Shown: one piece after another, positions 3,087 through 40,010 of the stretch
Position numbering within the stretch: the first letter of the stretch is position 1
Layout of the letters: each line of letters opens with the position of its first letter
IMG/VR virus record: IMGVR_UViG_3300042939_001032
Span: 24,749-88,748 of that record
Length of the DNA stretch: 64,000 nt
Source: a virus
Lineage: Duplodnaviria; Caudoviricetes
Direction: 5' to 3' (one strand)
Notes under the pieces: generated by a model
Database searches by the model: none
Told to the model about the DNA's origin: nothing
Seen by the model: only the letters and a program-made list of their open reading frames with translations
Made by a program: the position numbers and the translations under genes

Positions 3087-3830
3087 TCACCTGGAGACGT
3101 ACAGGTCCGAGTAGGCCCGGATCACCGACTGGACAAAACTCGACCTCTCTATGTCATCGAACCCGAACTCCACGTGACCCACCTCTGGGAGGAGTTTGAG
3201 CCGTCTTAGGGCGTCGGAAAGACCATCCCCGCCGAACTTGCCTGACAGATCCCTCTGCACCACGTCCCCGAGCAGGGCGATGCTCGATCCGTCGCCTAGA
3301 CGTGTGAGAATCGTCATGAGGCTGTGGGTGGTGGTGTTCTGCATCTCGTCGGCAATGACTACGCAACGGTGCAGCGAACGTCCTCTCAGGTGCTCGATCG
3401 GCAGGAACTCGATGTACTTCTTCGAGAGGAGGTACTCCGCTTTGCCTTTGGGCATGAACACCTCCAACGAGTCGCGGACCGGGCAGATGTGCGGTGCGAT
3501 CTTCTCTTCGAGGTTACCGGGTAGGAAGCCAAGCCCCTGTTCTCCGGGGACATCGACCACGGGCTTTACGTAGTAGATCTTGTCGATCTCGCGCTTTGCC
3601 AGCTTCTCGCAGGCTACGTACGTCGCGAGAAGGGTCTTAGCGGTGCCAGGCGGTCCCGAGAGCATCGTGAGAGTCTTGGTACGCAGGTATCTCATCGCAT
3701 CCACCTGGTTCGGATTGCGGGGCATCAGCGTCCTATTCTCCTGGAATTTGGGCTGGGCGGGGGCGCTCTCCGTCGAGAGAAGGTGGTTGTCCTCTAATTG
3801 GCGTTGTTTCCGTGTTGATTTTCTAGCCAT
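3087..3830 (-). CDS. phoH: PhoH-family ATPase
   Basis: GPPGTAKT Walker A, LGFLPGNLEEK, LRGRSL, DEMQN, TRLGDGS, GDVVQRD. Confidence 0.95.
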   Translation of the reverse strand: MARKSTRKQRQLEDNHLLSTESAPAQPKFQENRTLMPRNPNQVDAMRYLRTKTLTMLSGPPGTAKTLLATYVACEKLAKREIDKIYYVKPVVDVPGEQGLGFLPGNLEEKIAPHICPVRDSLEVFMPKGKAEYLLSKKYIEFLPIEHLRGRSLHRCVVIADEMQNTTTHSLMTILTRLGDGSSIALLGDVVQRDLSGKFGGDGLSDALRRLKLLPEVGHVEFGFDDIERSSFVQSVIRAYSDLYVSR

Positions 3831-31779: not shown

Positions 31780-33693
31780 ATGTCCGAGTTACAAGTCCCC
31801 GAGTGGATGTCCAAGGAAGCCATCAAAACTCTCTCAAAAGGCTACCTGTATCAGGGCGAGACGCCCAGGGGGATGTACGAGCGTGTGGCCAACCAGGCCG
31901 CCAAACTGCTCAACTACCCCGAGATCTCAGGAGACATCTTCGAGGTGCTCTGGCGTGGGTTTCTGGGACTTGCCACTCCCGTGGCTAGTAACTTCGGCAC
32001 CTCGCGTGGCCTGCCTATCAGCTGCTACTCGAATGATATTTCGGACTCCGTGCGCTCCATCTACTCCCACCTCAAGGAGTCGGCGGCGCTCTCCCAGTAC
32101 GGTGGCGGGGTGGGAACCTACTTCGGCAATATCAGACCCTCCGGGGCACCCATCTCGTCTGGTGGGAAGAGCACCGGCGTGGTGCCGTGGATGAGGCAGT
32201 ATGACCAGTGCGCCGCTGTGGTGTCTCAGGGTGGGGTGAGGCGTGGCAGTTTCGCTCTCTACCTCCCCATCGACCACCCCGATCTTCCGGAGGTTTTACG
32301 CTCCAAGGACCACTCGCAGGGCGACCCACGTGACTTCATCGACAGCAACATCGCCATCACCATCACCGATGAGTGGGTAGAGAGCCTGCTTGCCGGGGAT
32401 AGGGACAAGCAGAAGTTGTTCGGCGAGGTGCTGAAGTCTAGACTGGTGTCAGGGTCTCCATACATCATCTTTATCGACAACGCCAACAAGGCCAATCCGG
32501 AATGCTACACTCAGAGAGGACTGAGTGTTAAGCTCAGCAATCTCTGCTCGGAGATCTTCCTGCACACCGACGAGAACCACACCTTCGTCTGCGTTCTCTC
32601 CTCTATCAACCTAGCACGCTGGGAGGAGTGGAAGGACTGGACCGGCCCGGCCACTGGCAAAACCGTCCCCGAACTGGCCGTGTACCTCCTCGACGCTGTT
32701 GTGGAGGAGTTCTGCCACAAGGCCGATCGCATCACCTCCATGGGAAGAGCGGTAAGGTTCGCTCGCAAGTCCAGGGCACTGGGCCTGGGGACCATGGGCC
32801 TCCACGCTCTCTACCAGTCCAAGAACCTCCCCTTCGCCTCCGCCGAGGCCCGCCAACTCAACGAGAAGGTTCACAGGTACGTCAAGGAGAAGGCGCAGAA
32901 AGCCTCCCGTGAGATGGCCGTCACCTATGGCGAGCCGGAATGGTGCCAGGGTACCGGGCTCCGTCACACCCACCTCATGGCCATCGCCCCCACCAAATCC
33001 AACTCCGTAATCTGCGGAGCGGGAAGCGAGGGTATCGAGCCCATCGACGCGAACTACTACGTTGCAAAGCAGGCCAAGGGGACCTTCGTTCGCAAGAACA
33101 AGTACCTTGTGGAACACCTCGAAAAGATCGGAAAGAATACCGACGAGACGTGGGAGTCGATTCTGGAGTTCAGAGGATCGATCCAGCATCTCAAGTTCAT
33201 CGACGACCACACCAAGGAGGTGTTCAGGACGGCGCGTGAGATCGACCAGTTTGAGATCATCAGGCAGGCCGCGGACCGGCAGAAGTACGTCTGCCAGGGT
33301 CAGTCCATCAACCTCTTCGTCGATCCCGAGTCCTCGCCGGAGTACCTCTTCAAGCTCCACCTGAGCGCTTGGAAGGGTGGCCTCAAGTCCCTCTACTATC
33401 TGAAGAGTTCGTCCCTGCTCGTGAAGAAGAAGCCTCCTGGCCAGCAGAAGGTCGCGAAGATCATCACCAAGCAGGAGTGCCCCTACTGCTCCATGGCCAA
33501 GTCCCTCCTCCGTAGCCAGGGCTGGACCATCAACGAGGTGGATAGGGCCGATGTCCCCGACTCCGAGTGGGTGTGGAAGACCGTGCCCCAGATCTGGCTC
33601 AATGACCAGTACGTTGGAGGCTACACCGACCTCGCCGAGAAGCTAGGTCAGGGGGAGAAGACATACAGCGAGTGTGCCGCCTGCGAGGGTTGA
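31780..33693 (+). CDS. nrdA: Ribonucleotide reductase class I alpha subunit fused to glutaredoxin
   Basis: ATPV, SCY, GGGVG, SNLCSEI, AIAPT, SLYY, then a CPYC..TVPQIW..GGY Grx domain and terminal CAACEG. Confidence 0.95.
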   Translation: MSELQVPEWMSKEAIKTLSKGYLYQGETPRGMYERVANQAAKLLNYPEISGDIFEVLWRGFLGLATPVASNFGTSRGLPISCYSNDISDSVRSIYSHLKESAALSQYGGGVGTYFGNIRPSGAPISSGGKSTGVVPWMRQYDQCAAVVSQGGVRRGSFALYLPIDHPDLPEVLRSKDHSQGDPRDFIDSNIAITITDEWVESLLAGDRDKQKLFGEVLKSRLVSGSPYIIFIDNANKANPECYTQRGLSVKLSNLCSEIFLHTDENHTFVCVLSSINLARWEEWKDWTGPATGKTVPELAVYLLDAVVEEFCHKADRITSMGRAVRFARKSRALGLGTMGLHALYQSKNLPFASAEARQLNEKVHRYVKEKAQKASREMAVTYGEPEWCQGTGLRHTHLMAIAPTKSNSVICGAGSEGIEPIDANYYVAKQAKGTFVRKNKYLVEHLEKIGKNTDETWESILEFRGSIQHLKFIDDHTKEVFRTAREIDQFEIIRQAADRQKYVCQGQSINLFVDPESSPEYLFKLHLSAWKGGLKSLYYLKSSSLLVKKKPPGQQKVAKIITKQECPYCSMAKSLLRSQGWTINEVDRADVPDSEWVWKTVPQIWLNDQYVGGYTDLAEKLGQGEKTYSECAACEG

Positions 33694-34229: not shown

Positions 34230-34412
34230 ATGGCCCCCGTCCCCCGCCAACGCCTCATCAGTAAGATCGACAAATCATCCTGTAGGAACTGCGCTGGCAG
34301 GGGATTCCTCGTTATCGAGAAAAACTCGCCCGACGGGCGTGTATTACCCAACGAAATAGTAGAATGTGGAGTCTGCGATGGCACCGGAAAACGTCAAACA
34401 GATCAGGCCTAA
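34230..34412 (+). CDS. DnaJ-type zinc finger protein
   Basis: CRNCAGRG and CGVCDGTG. Confidence 0.7.
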   Translation: MAPVPRQRLISKIDKSSCRNCAGRGFLVIEKNSPDGRVLPNEIVECGVCDGTGKRQTDQA

Positions 34413-34863
34413 CACCCAGGTCCTAGTGCTCAACGCGTCCTACGAACCTCTCCATGTCACGAGCTGGAAGAGAGCCATCATCCTCCTGCTCAAGGAGAAA
34501 GCCCTGATCGTATCGGCTAAAGTCATCCGGCTCACCGAGTACATAAGGATACCCTTCTCCAGGATCAACTCGCTCAAACCCTCCCGCAGCCTCATATACA
34601 AGCGTGACGGGCACAAGTGCCAGTACTGCGGATCGACAAGACGCCTGACCATCGACCACGTGATCCCCAGGAGCAGGGGAGGCAAGGACACGTGGGAGAA
34701 TCTGGTCGTGGCGTGCTCGACATGCAATACGCGTAAGGGCGACATCCCGCTCGAGCAGACAGGGATGAGACTGACTAGAAAGCCAAGCGCGCCCGCGAAT
34801 AGGTTCCTGTTAAGTCTGATAGACTCCGGGTCTCCGGAGTGGCTTCAGTACGCATTCGATTAA
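34378..34863 (+). CDS. HNH endonuclease (McrA-like)
   Basis: VLVLNASYEPL, RDGHKCQYCG, TIDHVIPRSRGG..WENLVVACSTCN.RKG. Confidence 0.92.
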   Translation: MAPENVKQIRPNTQVLVLNASYEPLHVTSWKRAIILLLKEKALIVSAKVIRLTEYIRIPFSRINSLKPSRSLIYKRDGHKCQYCGSTRRLTIDHVIPRSRGGKDTWENLVVACSTCNTRKGDIPLEQTGMRLTRKPSAPANRFLLSLIDSGSPEWLQYAFD

Positions 34864-34873
34864 AGAAACATAG

Positions 34874-34978
34874 ATCGTTCATTGGAGAGGCATCTCCCTC
34901 TCCGACGGAAGTAGGCCGACTCGGAACGGACCGTTCAGCCACAACTCACGTGGCCGCAAAAGCCGACTGAAGGAACGC
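34874..34978 (+). ncRNA. Tandem glutamine riboswitch (glnA / Downstream-peptide class)
   Basis: Two units, each CGTTCA-hairpin-(CGGAAGTAG or CGCAAAA)-GCCGACT-(CG or GAAG)-GAACG, with P1 = CGTTC/GAACG; directly upstream of a YRGV peptide. Confidence 0.8.
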
Positions 34979-35011
34979 ACCAATACCCTAACAAGTAAAG
35001 GAGCAAACCTA

Positions 35012-35137
35012 ATGTCCAAAGCAGTCTATCGCGGTGTGTCTTACGACACCCAGAAGCGTCTCCAGTACCAGCAGCAGATGCAACTTCAGCACTCCGAAGT
35101 GTACAGAGGAGTCAAGTTCGTGAAGGAGGACAAGTGA
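35012..35137 (+). CDS. DUF4278-like peptide (41 aa), not in ORF track
   Basis: AAGGAG SD; MSKAVYRGVSYDTQKRLQYQQQMQLQHSEVYRGVKFVKEDK with two YRGV motifs. Confidence 0.85.
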   Translation: MSKAVYRGVSYDTQKRLQYQQQMQLQHSEVYRGVKFVKEDK

Positions 35138-35232
35138 TGAAGATTAACGTCCTCCAGCTCATCAAGGAGCAGAAGCAAAAGCAGGATAGGCGCCACAAGG
35201 CCTCTATAGCTCAACTTATCCGGTCCAAGTAG
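35137..35232 (+). CDS. Basic 31-aa peptide, translationally coupled; not in ORF track
   Basis: TGATG overlap, AAGGAGG SD; MKINVLQLIKEQKQKQDRRHKASIAQLIRSK. Confidence 0.7.
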   Translation: MKINVLQLIKEQKQKQDRRHKASIAQLIRSK

Positions 35233-35243
35233 ACCGGTTCTTC

Positions 35244-35275
35244 GGAGGGAGGTACGCTTCCCTCCTTTCTTTTTT
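35244..35275 (+). terminator. Intrinsic terminator closing the riboswitch-peptide unit
   Basis: GGAGGGAGG-TACG-CTTCCCTCC followed by TTTCTTTTTT. Confidence 0.85.
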
Positions 35276-35284
35276 CTACCAGTA

Positions 35285-35851
35285 ATGGATTTTTACTTTT
35301 CGTTCGGGAAGAAGAGACCATCGGAGAGGGGCCTCGTCATCCAGGCCGCCGTGCTGTGGGGCCTGCTCGAACCCGCCCTCGACCTCATCCTAGACTTCGT
35401 CAACAGGAAGGCGATAAAGCGCATCGGTGCCAGGAACCTTAAGACGCTCTTCGACGAGCTGGACATCTTCTGGTTGAGAAATGCCGAGCACAAGAACTAC
35501 TCCGAGTCGCAGACCCGGCTCATCATCTCCATGCTACTGAAAGCCGTGGAGGACGAGAATCTCACCCGGAAGGAACTGCTCGCCCTTGTGGACTTTGTCC
35601 AGCGCAAGTGGGTTCAGTCGGAAGCGCTTCACAAGACCTTCACTATGACCGACGAGGTCATCGAGGCGCGAGTCGAAGCCACAGTGGACCAGGCCATCGA
35701 GCTCTACGAGAAGACATACGAGGAAAGGCCACAGACCCCAGAGGAGTTCGTGGCCAGTACCGCGGAGATCATCTTCCACGAGCCGGACGGGAGCGAGGCT
35801 CAGGCCCTGCTCGGTGGGATGATGCAGATCAAAAACAAACTGGTGTACTGA
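35285..35851 (+). CDS. Hypothetical protein, probable paralogue of 63355..63807
   Basis: Shared pattern K.G..(L/V)KT....D....S....A..D..L...E....V.....W. Confidence 0.6.
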   Translation: MDFYFSFGKKRPSERGLVIQAAVLWGLLEPALDLILDFVNRKAIKRIGARNLKTLFDELDIFWLRNAEHKNYSESQTRLIISMLLKAVEDENLTRKELLALVDFVQRKWVQSEALHKTFTMTDEVIEARVEATVDQAIELYEKTYEERPQTPEEFVASTAEIIFHEPDGSEAQALLGGMMQIKNKLVY

Positions 35852-35855
35852 GCGC

Positions 35856-37055
35856 TCAGAGCGCCCAGATCGGCTCCATGACGTTCGCGGAGGTGGTATT
35901 GTTCTGCCTCAGGATGGCGCCATTGGGCCTCTCAACCCACTCACGGTTGCCCTTGAGCGCTTCCTCCACCTCCAGGATCCAGTCACGGGCGGTGCAGGCC
36001 GGGACGTTCTGGCAGATTACGTTGCTGTGCTTGGTGGGGATGTGGACTTTCGCCGCGTAGTCTTTCGGGAATCCCATCAGAGCGAGGCCCTCAGCCACCG
36101 TGAGCCAACGGTCCTCGTGGGGATGCATGAGGTAGGGGAGTGACTTCCACATCAGGCTCTGCGTCCTATACCACGCCAGTTTCATGCTTCCATCCATGAT
36201 GTTCTTTCCGGCGCGCTTCTTCTCGAGTGTGTAGTTAAGCCACCGACTAGCCTTCTCATCCTTGACCACTCTAGCGGCCTCCTCCAACCATCCCGACTCG
36301 TAGATAACGTTCCAGACGGACGTCATGCGGTTCGCCGCCACCTTGGAGAGGATGTCCTGCTTCGTGTATCCAGCATACTTCCCCTCGATAAACTGCCAGA
36401 GCGGATCGGTGCTAGGCACACCCTTGGAGTTGACGGGCTCGGACTTAGCAAACCCTCCCGCCTTGAGGAATTTGTGAAATGGCTCGAAGTCCCGCTTTAC
36501 AGGTGCGAGCACAGGGACTTTGTCACCCTGCCATAGGAAGAAGAACGAACGAGTCCGTTCCTGGGGCACCCCGTGATTGATCGAGGTGGTCTTCACCAGG
36601 CTCATGGAGTAGCCATGCTCGGCGGCTAGGGAGTTGATTCTCTCCGCAAACTCCTCTCCCATCTTCGAGTAGAGGGCCGGCGCATTCTCCACCATCATGG
36701 CCTTAGGCTTGATCTTCGTCATGGCGAACTCAGCCGCGTGGTACATGTGCATGTTGCTGGGCGCCGAGCAACCACGCGGGTTGTTCACCTTCTCACCAGA
36801 GGTGGTATTGGCCATGGAGAGGCCGGCGCAGGGCGGCAGGGACGTAACAATATCAACGTACTTGGTGGGGTAGTTACCCTCATCGAGGTTGTGGAAGGGG
36901 GTCTTGTCGAAGTACTTCAGGCAGTACTGATCGTTGGCGCCGAAGGAATCGCTCCAGGACGCGATCCACTCGGGATCCTTCTCCAGGGCCAGGGTCGTGC
37001 CGACCACGCTCCCTCCTACCAGGGGGATGATGTGGCCGTGGGTGTATGATGACAT
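35856..37055 (-). CDS. C5-cytosine DNA methyltransferase-like protein with non-canonical motif I
   Basis: PPCAGLS (IV), VENA (VI), VPQERTR (VIII), RWLTVAEGLALMGFP (IX), CQNVP (X); motif I reads IPLVGG. Confidence 0.8.
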   Translation of the reverse strand: MSSYTHGHIIPLVGGSVVGTTLALEKDPEWIASWSDSFGANDQYCLKYFDKTPFHNLDEGNYPTKYVDIVTSLPPCAGLSMANTTSGEKVNNPRGCSAPSNMHMYHAAEFAMTKIKPKAMMVENAPALYSKMGEEFAERINSLAAEHGYSMSLVKTTSINHGVPQERTRSFFFLWQGDKVPVLAPVKRDFEPFHKFLKAGGFAKSEPVNSKGVPSTDPLWQFIEGKYAGYTKQDILSKVAANRMTSVWNVIYESGWLEEAARVVKDEKASRWLNYTLEKKRAGKNIMDGSMKLAWYRTQSLMWKSLPYLMHPHEDRWLTVAEGLALMGFPKDYAAKVHIPTKHSNVICQNVPACTARDWILEVEEALKGNREWVERPNGAILRQNNTTSANVMEPIWAL

Positions 37056-37105: not shown

Positions 37106-37126
37106 ACTAGGTAGTAGAGCTTGAGT

Positions 37127-39298
37127 ATGCTTGGGGACTATGCCCCCTCGGATTGGGGAATCGCGGATAAAACTGAGTGGGTGGCGGAACAGCCGCTGGA
37201 GGGCGAGGCTAGAATGCCCGCGCTGGAGGGTAGAGATGTTGTTGGGTTTTCTGAGGCAGTTAGCTTTGCTGTTGGGCAACTAAAGCAACAGCCGGCTCAT
37301 GGCAACAGGAAGCAGGCGGCTATGGTCCATAAATGCGACCCTGGATTCCATGCTCAAGGTAACCAGTGCGTTCAAAGTAGCACAGCTCCTAAGCCAAAAG
37401 GTAGTGTAAGAACTCTTCCTCAAAAAAGAACCGGGGCGCAGATTCAGGAGGGAATGGCAAAAGCTCTCGATAGAAAAGGAGTAACTGAAGAAACGCAATC
37501 GCAACCTAAGCAAGAAGCGCAACCCAAACCAAAACCAGAACCAGAACCTAAATCAGAAAAGCAGCCAAAGCCCAGCGAAGAAGCAACTGGATCTACTACT
37601 TTAAATCAAGCTCACTCCCAGAGAGAAGCTTTTCTAAAAGATCGTAATCGTGACCCGTCTATGTACATAGACACACAAATGGTCGGTAGAGGGAAAGAAA
37701 GAACAACTATCAGAAACTACATAGAATCAAGGTTAGGCAGTAATCCAAAACTCAAAGATGCTGCAACTAGTGCGTTAGAATTTATGTCTCTGTGGGTAGA
37801 CGGAGACGGAAAAAGAATATCCGGTGATGCTATAAAGGAAGGCAAAACCGCTCAGGACGTAAAACAATTTAGTCTAGAATACAAATTAAATTCAGATGGA
37901 TCAGTATCACAGATAGATCCAAGTGAAGAAGGGGAACAGAGAGCGTTTAGAAATTATAATGAACTAGAGTCCGTACTAAATGGCCCTATTAAGAAAGCCC
38001 TATTAGCCGCTGGATTAACAGAGGAAGATCTATCAGAGCATCCTCCACAGAAACCCAATTTGAAAGGGCTCCCTAAAGAACAGAAAGAGGCTGTTAAAGC
38101 AGAATATGAACAAAAACTCTCCGCCTATAACCAGAGGGAAAAGAAAAGAGCAGCGTTGGCGGAAAACCTCTCCTCCGATGTAATGCAGGAGCACCTGCAG
38201 GAATCCGAGAGAAAGACCTTCGGATCCCCGCTGGATTCGTTCAAGGATTTGACTCCCGAAGAGCAGGATCAAATAGTTGACATTATCTATCCGCTTCTGC
38301 CCCCCACTCTTAAAGGCAGGTTCGATAAGGTTGGAAGTCCTAGGAAAAACATATTTGGCGGATACGAAATCCAAGATGGCAAAAAAACACCAGTTTACGC
38401 TGACAAAATTACCTCAACTCGCGGTAAAGGTATGCTAAAAAAATACCTTGTTCAAGGAGGAATAGATGGATACACCCAAGATCCAACCATTATGGGTCCT
38501 TTTACTTTAACGCTTGATCACGTACTTCCGTCAGCTAAGGGCGGTGGGGATCATCCTGATAATGGAGTCTTTACGCGAGGAGGGTTGAACACCCATCTAA
38601 GCGATAATAATTTCCTGTGGCTATATAGATCAGCATTAGGAGAGAAGGAAAGGCTTAATCAACTTTCCGAGAATCCAGAGGAACAAAAACGCTTATACAA
38701 TGACGCTCAAAGTGCCGCGTATAAATCTCAATTTGGAACTTCGGTGGCGTTATCGCAGGCTGGCACCGGTAAAAAATTAAGCGAGGGTGCTCTTAATAAC
38801 TCAAGGGGTAATTTGACTGGAGATATGCGAAAGGACATTGGAATGATCTCAAAAAACGTTCTTGATAACGATCTTCGAGAAGCAAATGCAACTTCTTTGG
38901 ATCCATCTTCGGCGGAAGTGCAAGAATTTGTTAAGAAACAAACTCTTAAGATCCTTGGAATATCATATTTTGGAACTTCTCACCCCAACGCACCAGCCCC
39001 AAGCGAAAAAGGCATGTCTTCTCCAATGCAAAATCTACTCTGGGGAGGAATATCTTCCAAACTTAAAGAAGGGCAATCCTTCGATGAAATAAATAACGCG
39101 ATATCAGATATCAAAAACACTTTAGCAGCCTCTTTGCTATCAGGGACGGTGGCAGGAAATAGATACCTATCTAAGATAGGCGGTGCATCTGATCAAGATA
39201 CAGAGAGTGTCTTTAAAGCGGGAGTTGAAAAACTTTCTCAATTCATCGGAAGGAATGTTTCCGATGCCGAAATCAACATGCTCAGGAGCCAATTCTAA
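37127..39298 (+). CDS. Large protein with a short leader, P/K/E linker and HNH-like nuclease domain
   Basis: LTLDHVLPSAKGGGDHPDNGVFTRGGLN; leader YAPSDWGI..GFSE; body visibly AT-richer than the genome. Confidence 0.7.
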   Translation: MLGDYAPSDWGIADKTEWVAEQPLEGEARMPALEGRDVVGFSEAVSFAVGQLKQQPAHGNRKQAAMVHKCDPGFHAQGNQCVQSSTAPKPKGSVRTLPQKRTGAQIQEGMAKALDRKGVTEETQSQPKQEAQPKPKPEPEPKSEKQPKPSEEATGSTTLNQAHSQREAFLKDRNRDPSMYIDTQMVGRGKERTTIRNYIESRLGSNPKLKDAATSALEFMSLWVDGDGKRISGDAIKEGKTAQDVKQFSLEYKLNSDGSVSQIDPSEEGEQRAFRNYNELESVLNGPIKKALLAAGLTEEDLSEHPPQKPNLKGLPKEQKEAVKAEYEQKLSAYNQREKKRAALAENLSSDVMQEHLQESERKTFGSPLDSFKDLTPEEQDQIVDIIYPLLPPTLKGRFDKVGSPRKNIFGGYEIQDGKKTPVYADKITSTRGKGMLKKYLVQGGIDGYTQDPTIMGPFTLTLDHVLPSAKGGGDHPDNGVFTRGGLNTHLSDNNFLWLYRSALGEKERLNQLSENPEEQKRLYNDAQSAAYKSQFGTSVALSQAGTGKKLSEGALNNSRGNLTGDMRKDIGMISKNVLDNDLREANATSLDPSSAEVQEFVKKQTLKILGISYFGTSHPNAPAPSEKGMSSPMQNLLWGGISSKLKEGQSFDEINNAISDIKNTLAASLLSGTVAGNRYLSKIGGASDQDTESVFKAGVEKLSQFIGRNVSDAEINMLRSQF

Positions 39299-39774
39299 TG
39301 GGAATAAAAGACTGGAAAAACTCCATATTTCAGTATTTGAAGGATTCTGGGGTAAAAGATCCCAAGTCCGTGATGTCAAAGCATGAGAGTCTGTTAAACT
39401 ACTTCTATATCAAGAAGATGTTGCCAGAAGACGTAAATCTATTCTTTGGCGATAAGTTAACAAAACTCTCCCAGGCGGACTATATGGAAATCCTTAGGGC
39501 TAAGCGGGGCTCATCCGCCTCCAATGCCGAAGGCAGGGGTACCAATTACGCCGATTCCATGGTATTCTATAAGGGGAAAGTGCTGGGGCGTTGCCCGGCA
39601 GGAACAACGCGCTCCGGTAAGACGTGCGTTCCTGGCGCCTCAGCCACGCCGAAAGGCCCCGGGTACAACACCCCAGACCTAGGTGGACTGACTCTGGCCC
39701 AAGTTAGGGCGCTCTCCAAAGCCAAGTCCACCGACGATATTATCAAAGCTCACCAAAAACAAGATAGACAATGA
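39298..39774 (+). CDS. Hypothetical protein with NYAD site and CPAG..GKTCVP minidomain
   Basis: TAATG coupling to the upstream gene; motif shared with 37127 (CDPG..GNQCV). Confidence 0.65.
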   Translation: MGIKDWKNSIFQYLKDSGVKDPKSVMSKHESLLNYFYIKKMLPEDVNLFFGDKLTKLSQADYMEILRAKRGSSASNAEGRGTNYADSMVFYKGKVLGRCPAGTTRSGKTCVPGASATPKGPGYNTPDLGGLTLAQVRALSKAKSTDDIIKAHQKQDRQ

Positions 39775-40010
39775 TCGAACGTATCACAAAGCCCATCCGC
39801 TTTGATAAGGATGTGCCATGGCTCGTAGTGGCCCACGACGGGGAGAAGTTCTTCGTCGCCAAGGAGGATGTCATCGCCGAGGACCCGCAGATGGAACTCA
39901 TCGAGATGGGGAGTCGGTCCCTGCTCCAGTGGGCCATGGAGTACGACTACCCTCTCCGTAAGTTCGTTAAGCTCCAGCGCCTCCTCATTGACAAGTATTT
40001 CGGGGCCTAG
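39771..40010 (+). CDS. Hypothetical protein
   Basis: ATGA overlap; phage-like codon usage. Confidence 0.6.
   Translation: MIERITKPIRFDKDVPWLVVAHDGEKFFVAKEDVIAEDPQMELIEMGSRSLLQWAMEYDYPLRKFVKLQRLLIDKYFGA

Follow-up and report, generated by a model that had tools for sequence, protein, structure and literature searches.

Organization of the locus

The stretch of DNA analysed here, hereafter the window, comprises 64,000 nucleotides (nt) of the virus record IMGVR_UViG_3300042939_001032, which is 88,748 bases long and estimated to be ~55% complete. At positions 34874 to 35275 it carries a glutamine riboswitch element followed by two small genes and a terminator, an arrangement that we refer to as the cassette. 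The products encoded in the window include the large terminase, baseplate and tail-fibre proteins, a ribonucleotide reductase, a polymerase, a primase and an endolysin. The terminase (TerL) is 66% identical to those of cyanophage S-TIM5 and its kin, the top match among 50,697 phage records, and the DNA runs that contain the cassette stretch are lake and other freshwater metagenomes. Judged by these sequences, the carrier of the cassette is a freshwater phage related to S-TIM5; the riboswitch match itself is absent from the S-TIM5 genome. Upstream lies an HNH endonuclease gene (34366..34863, plus strand; Pfam HNH, E 1.3e-17), the riboswitch beginning 11 nt past its stop codon, and a conserved gene of 188 amino acids (aa) adjoins the cassette on the downstream side. 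All features of the cassette are on the plus strand, and the G + C content is ~57% in the window versus ~40% in the relatives.

The Rfam family Glutamine (RF01739) matches positions 34874-34981 with 37.1 bits, its gathering score being 35 (E 2e-4 over the 64-kb window), and it is the sole Rfam family to reach threshold anywhere in the window; by this covariance model the RNA is a glutamine-I (glnA-type) riboswitch element. In such aptamers the glutamine site lies at the end of the helix P1 and consists of the C1:G59 pair, a triple with G22 and a long-range Watson-Crick pair, which joins the base after the junction "CG" to the base after the 3′ strand of P1 (PMC6698751), while the two strands of the E-loop read GAAGUAA and UGAAG (PMC5393176). 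Assigning the junction positions according to PMC6698751 and PMC5393176, and aligning 21 elements with MAFFT (alignment A1), we could distinguish two units.

Unit 1 opens with the P1 5′ strand CGTTC (34876..34880), invariant in 21/21 elements and paired in the Rfam alignment with 34973-34977 (outer P1). It continues with the P2 hairpin (34882..34905; 9 pairs, 34882-34890/34897-34905, and a 6-nt loop) and the junction CGG-AAGTA (34906..34913), where G34907 corresponds to the ligand-site G22, G34908 is the base of the long-range pairing, and GAAGTA (34908-34913) is one of the E-loop strands. A mini-hairpin P3 follows (34914..34921), with 2 pairs around CCGA (41-48 and 42-47 in A1, 97.6% paired), and then GGAACG with G34929 (34923..34929), whose columns are invariant and whose GAACG (34924-34928) is the 3′ P1 strand of the unit. 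Unit 2 repeats this plan with a P1 5′ strand CGTTC (34932..34936; invariant columns), a P2 hairpin (34938..34954; 5 pairs, 34938-34942/34950-34954, and a 7-nt loop), and the junction CGC-AAA with its own mini-hairpin P3 (34955..34968), in which C34957 is the long-range pairing base. Its 3′ part, GAAG, GAACG and C34978 (34969..34978), supplies the second E-loop strand (UGAAG, 34968-34972, found in unit 2 only), the 3′ strand of the outer P1 (34973-34977) and the partner of G34908. The motif GCCGACT is present twice. The P1 strands are identical between the units, and across the 21 aligned elements all 9 of the 9 counted P2 pairs change on both sides (4/4 in unit 1 and 5/5 in unit 2), with 99.4% of the P2 cells paired, a value that none of 500 shuffles equalled.

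Behind the aptamers, a leader (34979..35011) with the Shine-Dalgarno (SD) sequence AAGGAG at 34998-35003, 8 nt upstream of the ATG at 35012, precedes the gene of peptide 1 (35012..35137), a 41-aa DUF4278-like product that contains YRGV twice, around a Gln-rich linker. Peptide 1 scores 21.7 bits (E 2.6e-4) against Pfam DUF4278 (PF14105), for which the cut-off is 25.3, and matches phrog_5049 at E 6e-11; DUF4278 is matched by 16/16 aligned relatives of peptide 1 (E up to 0.01, best 1e-6), and the neighbours of peptide 1 in the protein atlas are DUF4278 clusters (0.93 and 0.91). The ATG of peptide 2 (35137..35232), a basic product of 31 aa, shares one base with the TGA of peptide 1 (TGATG) and has its own SD, AAGGAGG, at 35123-35129. 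The window copy of peptide 2 has no Pfam or PHROG match and no usable match in the protein atlas; among 17 aligned relatives (alignment A3), 11 match phrog_545, the best at E 4.8e-6. Compared with its relative at locus L049, the peptide 2 gene differs at 7, 4 and 23 first, second and third codon positions, with 13 synonymous and 10 non-synonymous codon changes, and the peptide 1 gene differs from that of locus L133 at 4, 3 and 17; the remaining two reading frames are full of stops. With substitutions falling mainly at third codon positions, both peptides are, by this measure, under coding selection. An intrinsic terminator (35244..35275) closes the site, consisting of a 9-pair stem (35244-35265; 6 G-C pairs) with a 4-nt loop and the T run TTTCTTTTTT, at -19.5 kcal/mol.

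The original prediction, a reading of the sequence without database searches, had placed here a phage-borne tandem glutamine riboswitch ahead of an SD, a 41-aa peptide with two YRGV motifs, a coupled 31-aa basic peptide and a terminator. The CGTTC/GAACG P1 strands, both hairpins, the doubled GCCGACT, the match to the glnA model, the two overlapping reading frames and the terminator are all borne out, and the terminase, tail and baseplate genes agree with the phage origin. The link that it drew between DUF4278 and glutamine aptamers is a published pattern in cyanobacteria (PMC6212724). The second family that it had named did not hold up, since the Glutamine-II (Downstream-peptide, RF01704) model gave 18.0 bits, over its 5′ part only, against a cut-off of 33.

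Interlocked or side-by-side aptamers

The best Infernal alignment to RF01739 is that of one aptamer with a 51-nt insert, its 5′ half coming from unit 1 and its 3′ half from unit 2, and four close cassette-bearing relatives gave the same type of alignment with 36.7-43.1 bits. The bases that should form the long-range pair are arranged in the same crossed manner. After the junction CG, unit 1 has G34908 and unit 2 has C34957; after the 3′ P1 strand, unit 1 has G34929 and unit 2 has C34978. Within the units of the window the closing pairs are thus the mismatches G.G and C.C, and across the units they are G:C and C:G, so that the pair capping P1 is found across units and not within them. The E-loop is divided as well, with GAAGTA solely in the unit 1 junction and GAAG solely before the 3′ strand of unit 2. 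With no GAAG ahead of its 3′ P1 strand, unit 1 itself offers no E-loop partner, and the junction side of unit 2 has no E-loop strand because there is no GTA there. A complete E-loop is found only in the core that Infernal aligns, that is, only if the units interlock. Of the two tandem aptamers of the original prediction, the two units therefore stand, and their being self-standing side by side is not supported, given the mismatched closing pairs and the single E-loop strand in each.

In the fold that we favour, an outer core would be composed of the 5′ half of unit 1 (P1 strand, P2, CGG and GAAGTA) and the 3′ half of unit 2 (GAAG, GAACG and C34978), which gives it a complete E-loop and the closing pair G34908:C34978. 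The inner core would consist of GGAACG-G34929, a 3-nt loop leading to the CGTTC of unit 2, the P2 of unit 2 and C34957; in this interlocked reading the inner P1 joins the strand 34924-34928 to 34932-34936, and C34957 is the partner of G34929.

To place the window among its relatives, the junction between the units was searched for exactly (GCCGACTCGGAACG, then 1-8 nt, then CGTTCA), and it occurs in at least 120 viral contigs; the 124 loci examined are the window, 3 phage isolates and 120 viral contigs (L005-L124), and the counts that we give over these loci hold among the matches listed. Both halves were present in 107 of the 124 loci. The outer cross pair is complementary in 107/107 of them (78 C/G and 29 G/C) and the inner cross pair is C:G in 106/107, the unit 1 base after the 3′ P1 strand being G in 106/107 and the unit 2 base after CG being C in 107/107. 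Mismatches at both within-unit closing pairs, together with perfect cross-unit pairs, are seen in the window and in 28 further loci. In alignment A1 the outer cross pair is CG in 16 elements, GC in 5 and unpaired in none, and the inner closing pair (columns 56-90) is G:C in 21/21; the side-by-side structure leaves each closing pair unpaired in 5/21. When a tree is built from the 170 nt that follow the element (98 rows), the cross pair switches its state at least 3 times, and this minimum also holds with starred branches only. Two further loci whose junction type lies outside the search pattern, L133 and L134, combine C...C inside unit 1 with C:G from unit to unit. The nearest-neighbour energies also differ, at -33.6 kcal/mol for the nested and -31.4 kcal/mol for the side-by-side helices. 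In the G + C-rich copy of the window we note an alternative register at 34922-34933, in which CGG 34922-34924 pairs with CCG 34931-33, extended by GGC/GCC, and competes with the inner P1; it belongs to the unconstrained minimum-energy fold at -46.6 kcal/mol, compared with the -33.6 kcal/mol of the nested helices alone.

Several points weigh against the interlocked fold. Since the P1 strands are identical and never vary, one covarying pair and the split E-loop alone separate the two folds, and three changes of state are few, a count that recombination between the riboswitch and the region used for the tree could inflate. The search pattern fixed the 3′ half of unit 1, and the sample therefore represents one subtype. 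L133 and L134 have A.C at the inner pair; closing the inner P1 would take a 3-nt loop that also supplies G34929 to the tertiary pair, an arrangement whose steric feasibility is assumed; and tandem glutamine aptamers have been reported to bind in vitro without cooperativity (PMC5066625).

The conventional alternative is that of two independent aptamers side by side, each with its own P1 and both binding glutamine, which would yield a steeper, pseudo-cooperative response. Each unit does have CGTTC...GAACG, a covarying P2 and the ligand-site CG, unit 2 alone (34930-34981) attains 35.0 bits, the within-unit closing pairs are also Watson-Crick in 78/107 loci among the matches listed, and 157 doublets are listed as pseudo-cooperative in PMC9481103. 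True doublets of this kind also exist, as a second pattern scan (GAAGGAACG...CGTTCA) returned 119 loci, 105 of them not riboswitch-like and 14 of them classical doublets in other viral contigs, with complete units, both E-loop strands and their own G..C pairs (G..C/G..C in 12/14). The existence of such complete doublets elsewhere makes the cyanophage type a distinct variant. In the cyanophage type itself, neither unit has both E-loop strands, unit 1 alone yields 20.7 bits (scanned in a stretch cut at 34930), the G.G and C.C mismatches of the window and 28 loci stand beside perfect cross-unit pairs, and the folding energy is 2.2 kcal/mol worse than that of the nested form, so that we regard two independent aptamers as unlikely. 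Another possibility is that only one aptamer works, with the outer core binding glutamine and 34914-34968 forming a structured P3 insert that has no ligand site, or with the inner pairing acting as a ligand-free competitor of the side-by-side fold. The Infernal alignment leaves 51 nt as an insert, an E-loop is missing from the inner core, and the A.C mismatch of L133 and L134 falls on the inner pair, all of which fit a single site. The inner CGC, GGAACG-G and CGTTCA are nevertheless invariant in 21/21 elements and the inner pair is G:C in 106/107 loci among the matches listed, an invariance that a passive insert would not need, and Glutamine-II aptamers bind without an E-loop (PMC6698751); a single working site thus seems to us rather improbable, if a little less so than two independent ones.

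On balance, the best-supported fold is the one in which the two units are interlocked and not side by side, and we hold it to be probable, if by no means certain. The wider interpretation has in our view an even chance of being right: the cyanophage "tandem" would be one interlocked sensor with two cores, an outer core around an inner, circularly closed one, and its payload would consist of two micro-proteins specific to phages, the more persistent of which is the basic peptide 2.

Distribution and variants of the cassette

Apart from the at least 120 viral contigs, the cassette is found in the isolates S-PM2, S-CREM1 and DSL-LC02, and a search for distant DNA relatives located the riboswitch-peptide stretch in T4-like cyanophages. 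S-CREM1 carries a 99-nt annotated "riboswitch glnA" at the cassette stretch, and S-PM2 has two units (24.4 and 33.3 bits) followed by p190 and p191. The junction motif has 17 matches in 185,579 species genomes; 13 of these are chance matches in G + C-rich genomes, and the 4 riboswitch-like ones are all on single-cell or metagenome-bin contigs that resemble phage DNA.

Among the matches listed, unit 1 has a simple P2 hairpin in 87/124 loci and no local 5′ half in 37/124, 17 of which have an in-frame small open reading frame (ORF) in its place and 20 of which simply have no local 5′ half. Unit 2 has a simple hairpin in 28/124, a P2 loop enclosing an ORF of ~49-66 codons in 79/124, and no detectable 3′ half in 17/124, mostly at locus ends. 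The enclosed ORF of unit 2 (in DSL-LC02, locus L002, at 1310-1560) has its ATG in the P2 5′ strand, directly after CGTTCA, and its stop is the TGA of CTGAAGG in all parsed cases but one, always 8 nt before the end of the unit, which implies a gene both enclosed by and overlapping the aptamer. The ORF in the loop of unit 1 (17 loci, e.g. L012, L022, L073 and L115) has ~65 codons, a Gly-Arg-Lys end and a stop that is the TAA of the conserved junction AAGTAA.

A complete homologue of peptide 1 lies downstream in 75 loci among the matches listed, in 22 it is cut by the end of the locus, and in 10 it was missed by the pattern: 2 of these loci are too short, in 5 the peptide falls outside the pattern or the range searched, an early stop interrupts 1, and in 2 a peptide-2-like ORF comes directly after the switch. 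A small ORF starts at the stop of peptide 1 in 33 of the 75 loci, and by manual reading 21 of these ORFs belong to the basic peptide 2 family, 8 to a hydrophobic family and 1 is a second DUF4278 peptide, with 3 appearing spurious. In S-CREM1 (L001 1610-1756), one ORF fuses the first YRG motif of peptide 1 to the peptide-2 sequence; in L127 and L128, 94-95% relatives of the window (~3200-3500), peptide 1 is cut to Met-Ser-Lys fused to peptide 2; and in L075 and L095 a peptide-2-like ORF stands directly 3′ of the switch. These fused and peptide-2-only forms suggest that peptide 2 is the more persistent product. Among public phage records, the homologues are annotated in S-PM2 (p190/p191) and DSL-LC02 and unannotated in P-RSM6, MED4-213 and P-RSM1.

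The 188-aa gene led to ten relatives (L126-L135). L126 and L129 have the same cassette as the window, L127 and L128 have the switch with the peptide-2 form only, L133, L134 and L135 have other versions, those of L133 and L134 in the same genomic slot of 71% relatives, and L130 is cut off before the site. In L131 and L132, also 71% relatives (~3400-3500), the site is empty, the HNH gene being followed by GATTAAAG and then by the same terminator. The insert therefore spans approximately 34869-35238, and the terminator belongs to the site and not to the insert. Within this phage lineage the cassette is an insertion or deletion polymorphism. Taken together, we consider it very probable that the window carries a member of a conserved cyanophage cassette, made of a double glutamine-I aptamer and two translationally coupled micro-proteins and present here as a ~370-nt insert between the HNH and 188-aa genes.

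Transcription and control of expression

A promoter scan returned 0 sigma-70-like sites in 34300-35900, and no NtcA-type box (GTA-N8-TAC, at most 1 mismatch) occurs within 34600-34873; at the same stringency the window has 213 such sites against 184 +/- 12.5 expected, and the nearest exact one (34539-34552) lies inside the HNH gene. Contigs from freshwater RNA libraries overlie the region, those of X15 and X16 (one study) covering 34300-35171, across the boundary between the HNH gene and the cassette, and that of X17 (a second study) covering 34896-35176, each without a break. All three end near 35171-35176, in the low-complexity stretch AGCAGAAGCAAAAGCAG, and we draw no inference from these ends. 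The unbroken contigs agree with transcription entering from the HNH gene, and the HNH gene and the riboswitch cassette are probably on one transcript; against this, RNA-library contigs are compatible with carry-over of DNA and do not by themselves demonstrate a single transcript. The original prediction of a self-contained unit is in this respect half right, as there is no adjacent promoter or NtcA box, the RNA contigs run in from the HNH gene, and the terminator belongs to the site. A further 153-nt contig of a freshwater RNA library (X17 record 7) matches only the junction, window positions 34896-34937, and its flanks are of another cassette type (a different P2 and an enclosed ORF), pointing to a second phage's version in that library.

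From the 3′ P1 strand of unit 2 through the ATG, the window is letter-for-letter the same as the T4-like phage DSL-LC02, the two being 76% identical overall and the coding sequence that flanks the leader differing at synonymous sites. The identity of the leader in so distant a phage, despite the differing coding flanks, suggests selection on the RNA. There is no terminator between the aptamers and peptide 1, which makes translational control the likely mode, as for gifB of Synechocystis. By analogy with gifB, glutamine binding would stabilize the interlocked fold, and high glutamine would lead to more translation of peptide 1 and, through coupling, of peptide 2. Whether the switch is indeed ON at high glutamine, as this analogy proposes, we consider evenly balanced. 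In the CUCUUUA-leader subgroup, the closing base of the outer core is also the first base of a 7-pair helix opposed to the SD (anti-SD; -9.8 to -10.4 kcal/mol), an arrangement that fits an ON switch of the kind proposed for gifB (PMC6212724). The window itself speaks less clearly for such a mechanism: its leader has no anti-SD, no conserved pairing between SD and aptamer was found by RNAduplex or constrained folding, and the predicted accessibility of SD and AUG is equal for free, nested and side-by-side aptamers (0.50; 0.62-0.64). Lacking an anti-SD and with an accessibility independent of state, the window does not reveal the regulated step. The best SD duplex that we found, with the P2 region of unit 1, was rejected as it is not common to DSL-LC02, which has the same leader.

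It could be argued that the element no longer regulates, the aptamers being merely a stable 5′ structure and the peptides made constitutively from the HNH transcript, since no expression platform, promoter or NtcA-type box was seen in the window. The ligand-site bases and both closing pairs are intact, though, and the leader is the same as that of a distant phage whose coding surroundings differ synonymously, which again indicates selection on the RNA and makes a defunct element improbable. If the interlocked fold is true, it would provide a direct link between ligand sensing and translation, because in most relatives entire small genes are enclosed by the P2 loops, with their start and stop codons located in the aptamer strands.

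Function of the peptides

A nitrogen-related host target for the peptides is possible, although we rate it at somewhat less than an even chance, and that the target is glutamine synthetase (GS) itself is doubtful. DUF4278 is a part of IF17, a factor that inactivates GS, and the association of glutamine aptamers with DUF4278 genes has been published for cyanobacteria (PMC6212724). It can be hypothesized on this basis, along the lines of the original prediction, that the peptides are phage-made inhibitors of host GS, similar to IF17 or IF7, peptide 1 being DUF4278-like and under the control of a glutamine aptamer, as is gifB. According to Klahn et al. (PMC6212724), however, the short DUF4278 proteins of Prochlorococcus are without the C-terminal residues that IF17 needs to bind GS. 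The 41-aa peptide 1 is shorter still, with room for the DUF4278 part only, and it is dispensable in the relatives L127, L128, L075 and L095, so that direct inhibition of the enzyme appears unlikely. As candidates for tools by which phages read or change the nitrogen status of their host, the micro-proteins have cultured carriers in S-PM2, S-CREM1 and DSL-LC02.

Comparison with known systems

In Synechocystis sp. PCC 6803, the leader of gifB (IF17) has an aptamer of the same family with a DUF4278 gene downstream, and is described as a translational ON switch (Klahn et al. 2018, PMC6212724): the ribosome-binding site pairs with the base that follows P1 and with the bases next to it, likewise the arrangement of the CUCUUUA phage subgroup. 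It differs from the window in having a single aptamer, a 149-aa product with a GS-binding part and an NtcA-repressed promoter, whereas the window has two cores that appear to be interlocked, a 41-aa product with a second peptide, no adjacent promoter or NtcA box and no anti-SD. The tandem glutamine riboswitches (PMC5066625, PMC9481103) likewise consist of two glnA-type units a few nt apart with no platform between them; they are described as separate and pseudo-cooperative, with no cooperativity in vitro and "no benefit identified". In the phage subtype, by contrast, the closing pairs connect one unit with the other and the E-loop strands are divided between them. The glnA RNAs of T4-like cyanophages (S-CREM1; P-TIM68 in Table S7 of PMC9964418; S-PM2) have the same double aptamer, peptide 1, peptide 2 and terminator, and they belong to Kyanoviridae with a TTGAC-type promoter of their own, while the cassette of the window sits in a relative of S-TIM5, behind an HNH gene and at ~57% G + C. 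In Prochlorococcus and marine Synechococcus, the Glutamine-II leaders of DUF4278 genes (yfr6) similarly place a glutamine aptamer before a short DUF4278 peptide and have a C:G closing pair, as does the phage inner core. A Glutamine-II aptamer can also be made of two separate strands, which come together on binding, and has been crystallized with exchanged strands (PMC6698751); its architecture is that of a pseudoknot, and its model scores low in the window.

Riboswitches are considered uncommon in phages. Glutamine riboswitches of phages, the tandem arrangement and the connection with DUF4278 are all already known: the glnA RNA and its tandem forms have been published (PMC2864571), two glutamine aptamers were recorded by one survey of cyanophage genomes (PMC5473149), and glutamine riboswitches in phages are reported in PMC9004378 and in PMC9964418, whose Table S7 includes S-CREM1 and P-TIM68. 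Against the two of that survey (PMC5473149), viral contigs with the cassette number well over one hundred, and its carriers fall into at least two cyanomyovirus lineages that are not related to each other. In the literature searched, which covered glutamine riboswitches of cyanophages, their tandem and nested forms and DUF4278 in phages, we found no account of the interlocked fold, none of the paired peptides of the phage cassette and none of DUF4278 within the genomes of phages. Should the interlocked fold be true, it would answer a point left open in the literature, the purpose of tandem glutamine aptamers, and would be a natural case of two ligand sites formed from interleaved halves.

Neighbouring features

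Some features of the surrounding DNA are worth recording. The ribonucleotide reductase large subunit (31780-33693) has a C-terminal glutaredoxin domain in the same ORF (Pfam E 3.2e-8). A 60-aa ORF at 34230-34412, overlapping the start of the HNH gene, contains CxxCxGxG zinc-finger motifs and matches the DnaJ central domain at E 9.7e-6, which is under the cut-off. On the other side of the cassette, a C-5 cytosine DNA methylase gene on the minus strand (35856-37055) is convergent with the 188-aa gene, and the G + C content falls to 0.46 in 38001-40000, compared with ~0.57 elsewhere, a stretch lying in and beyond a 725-aa ORF (37121-39298).

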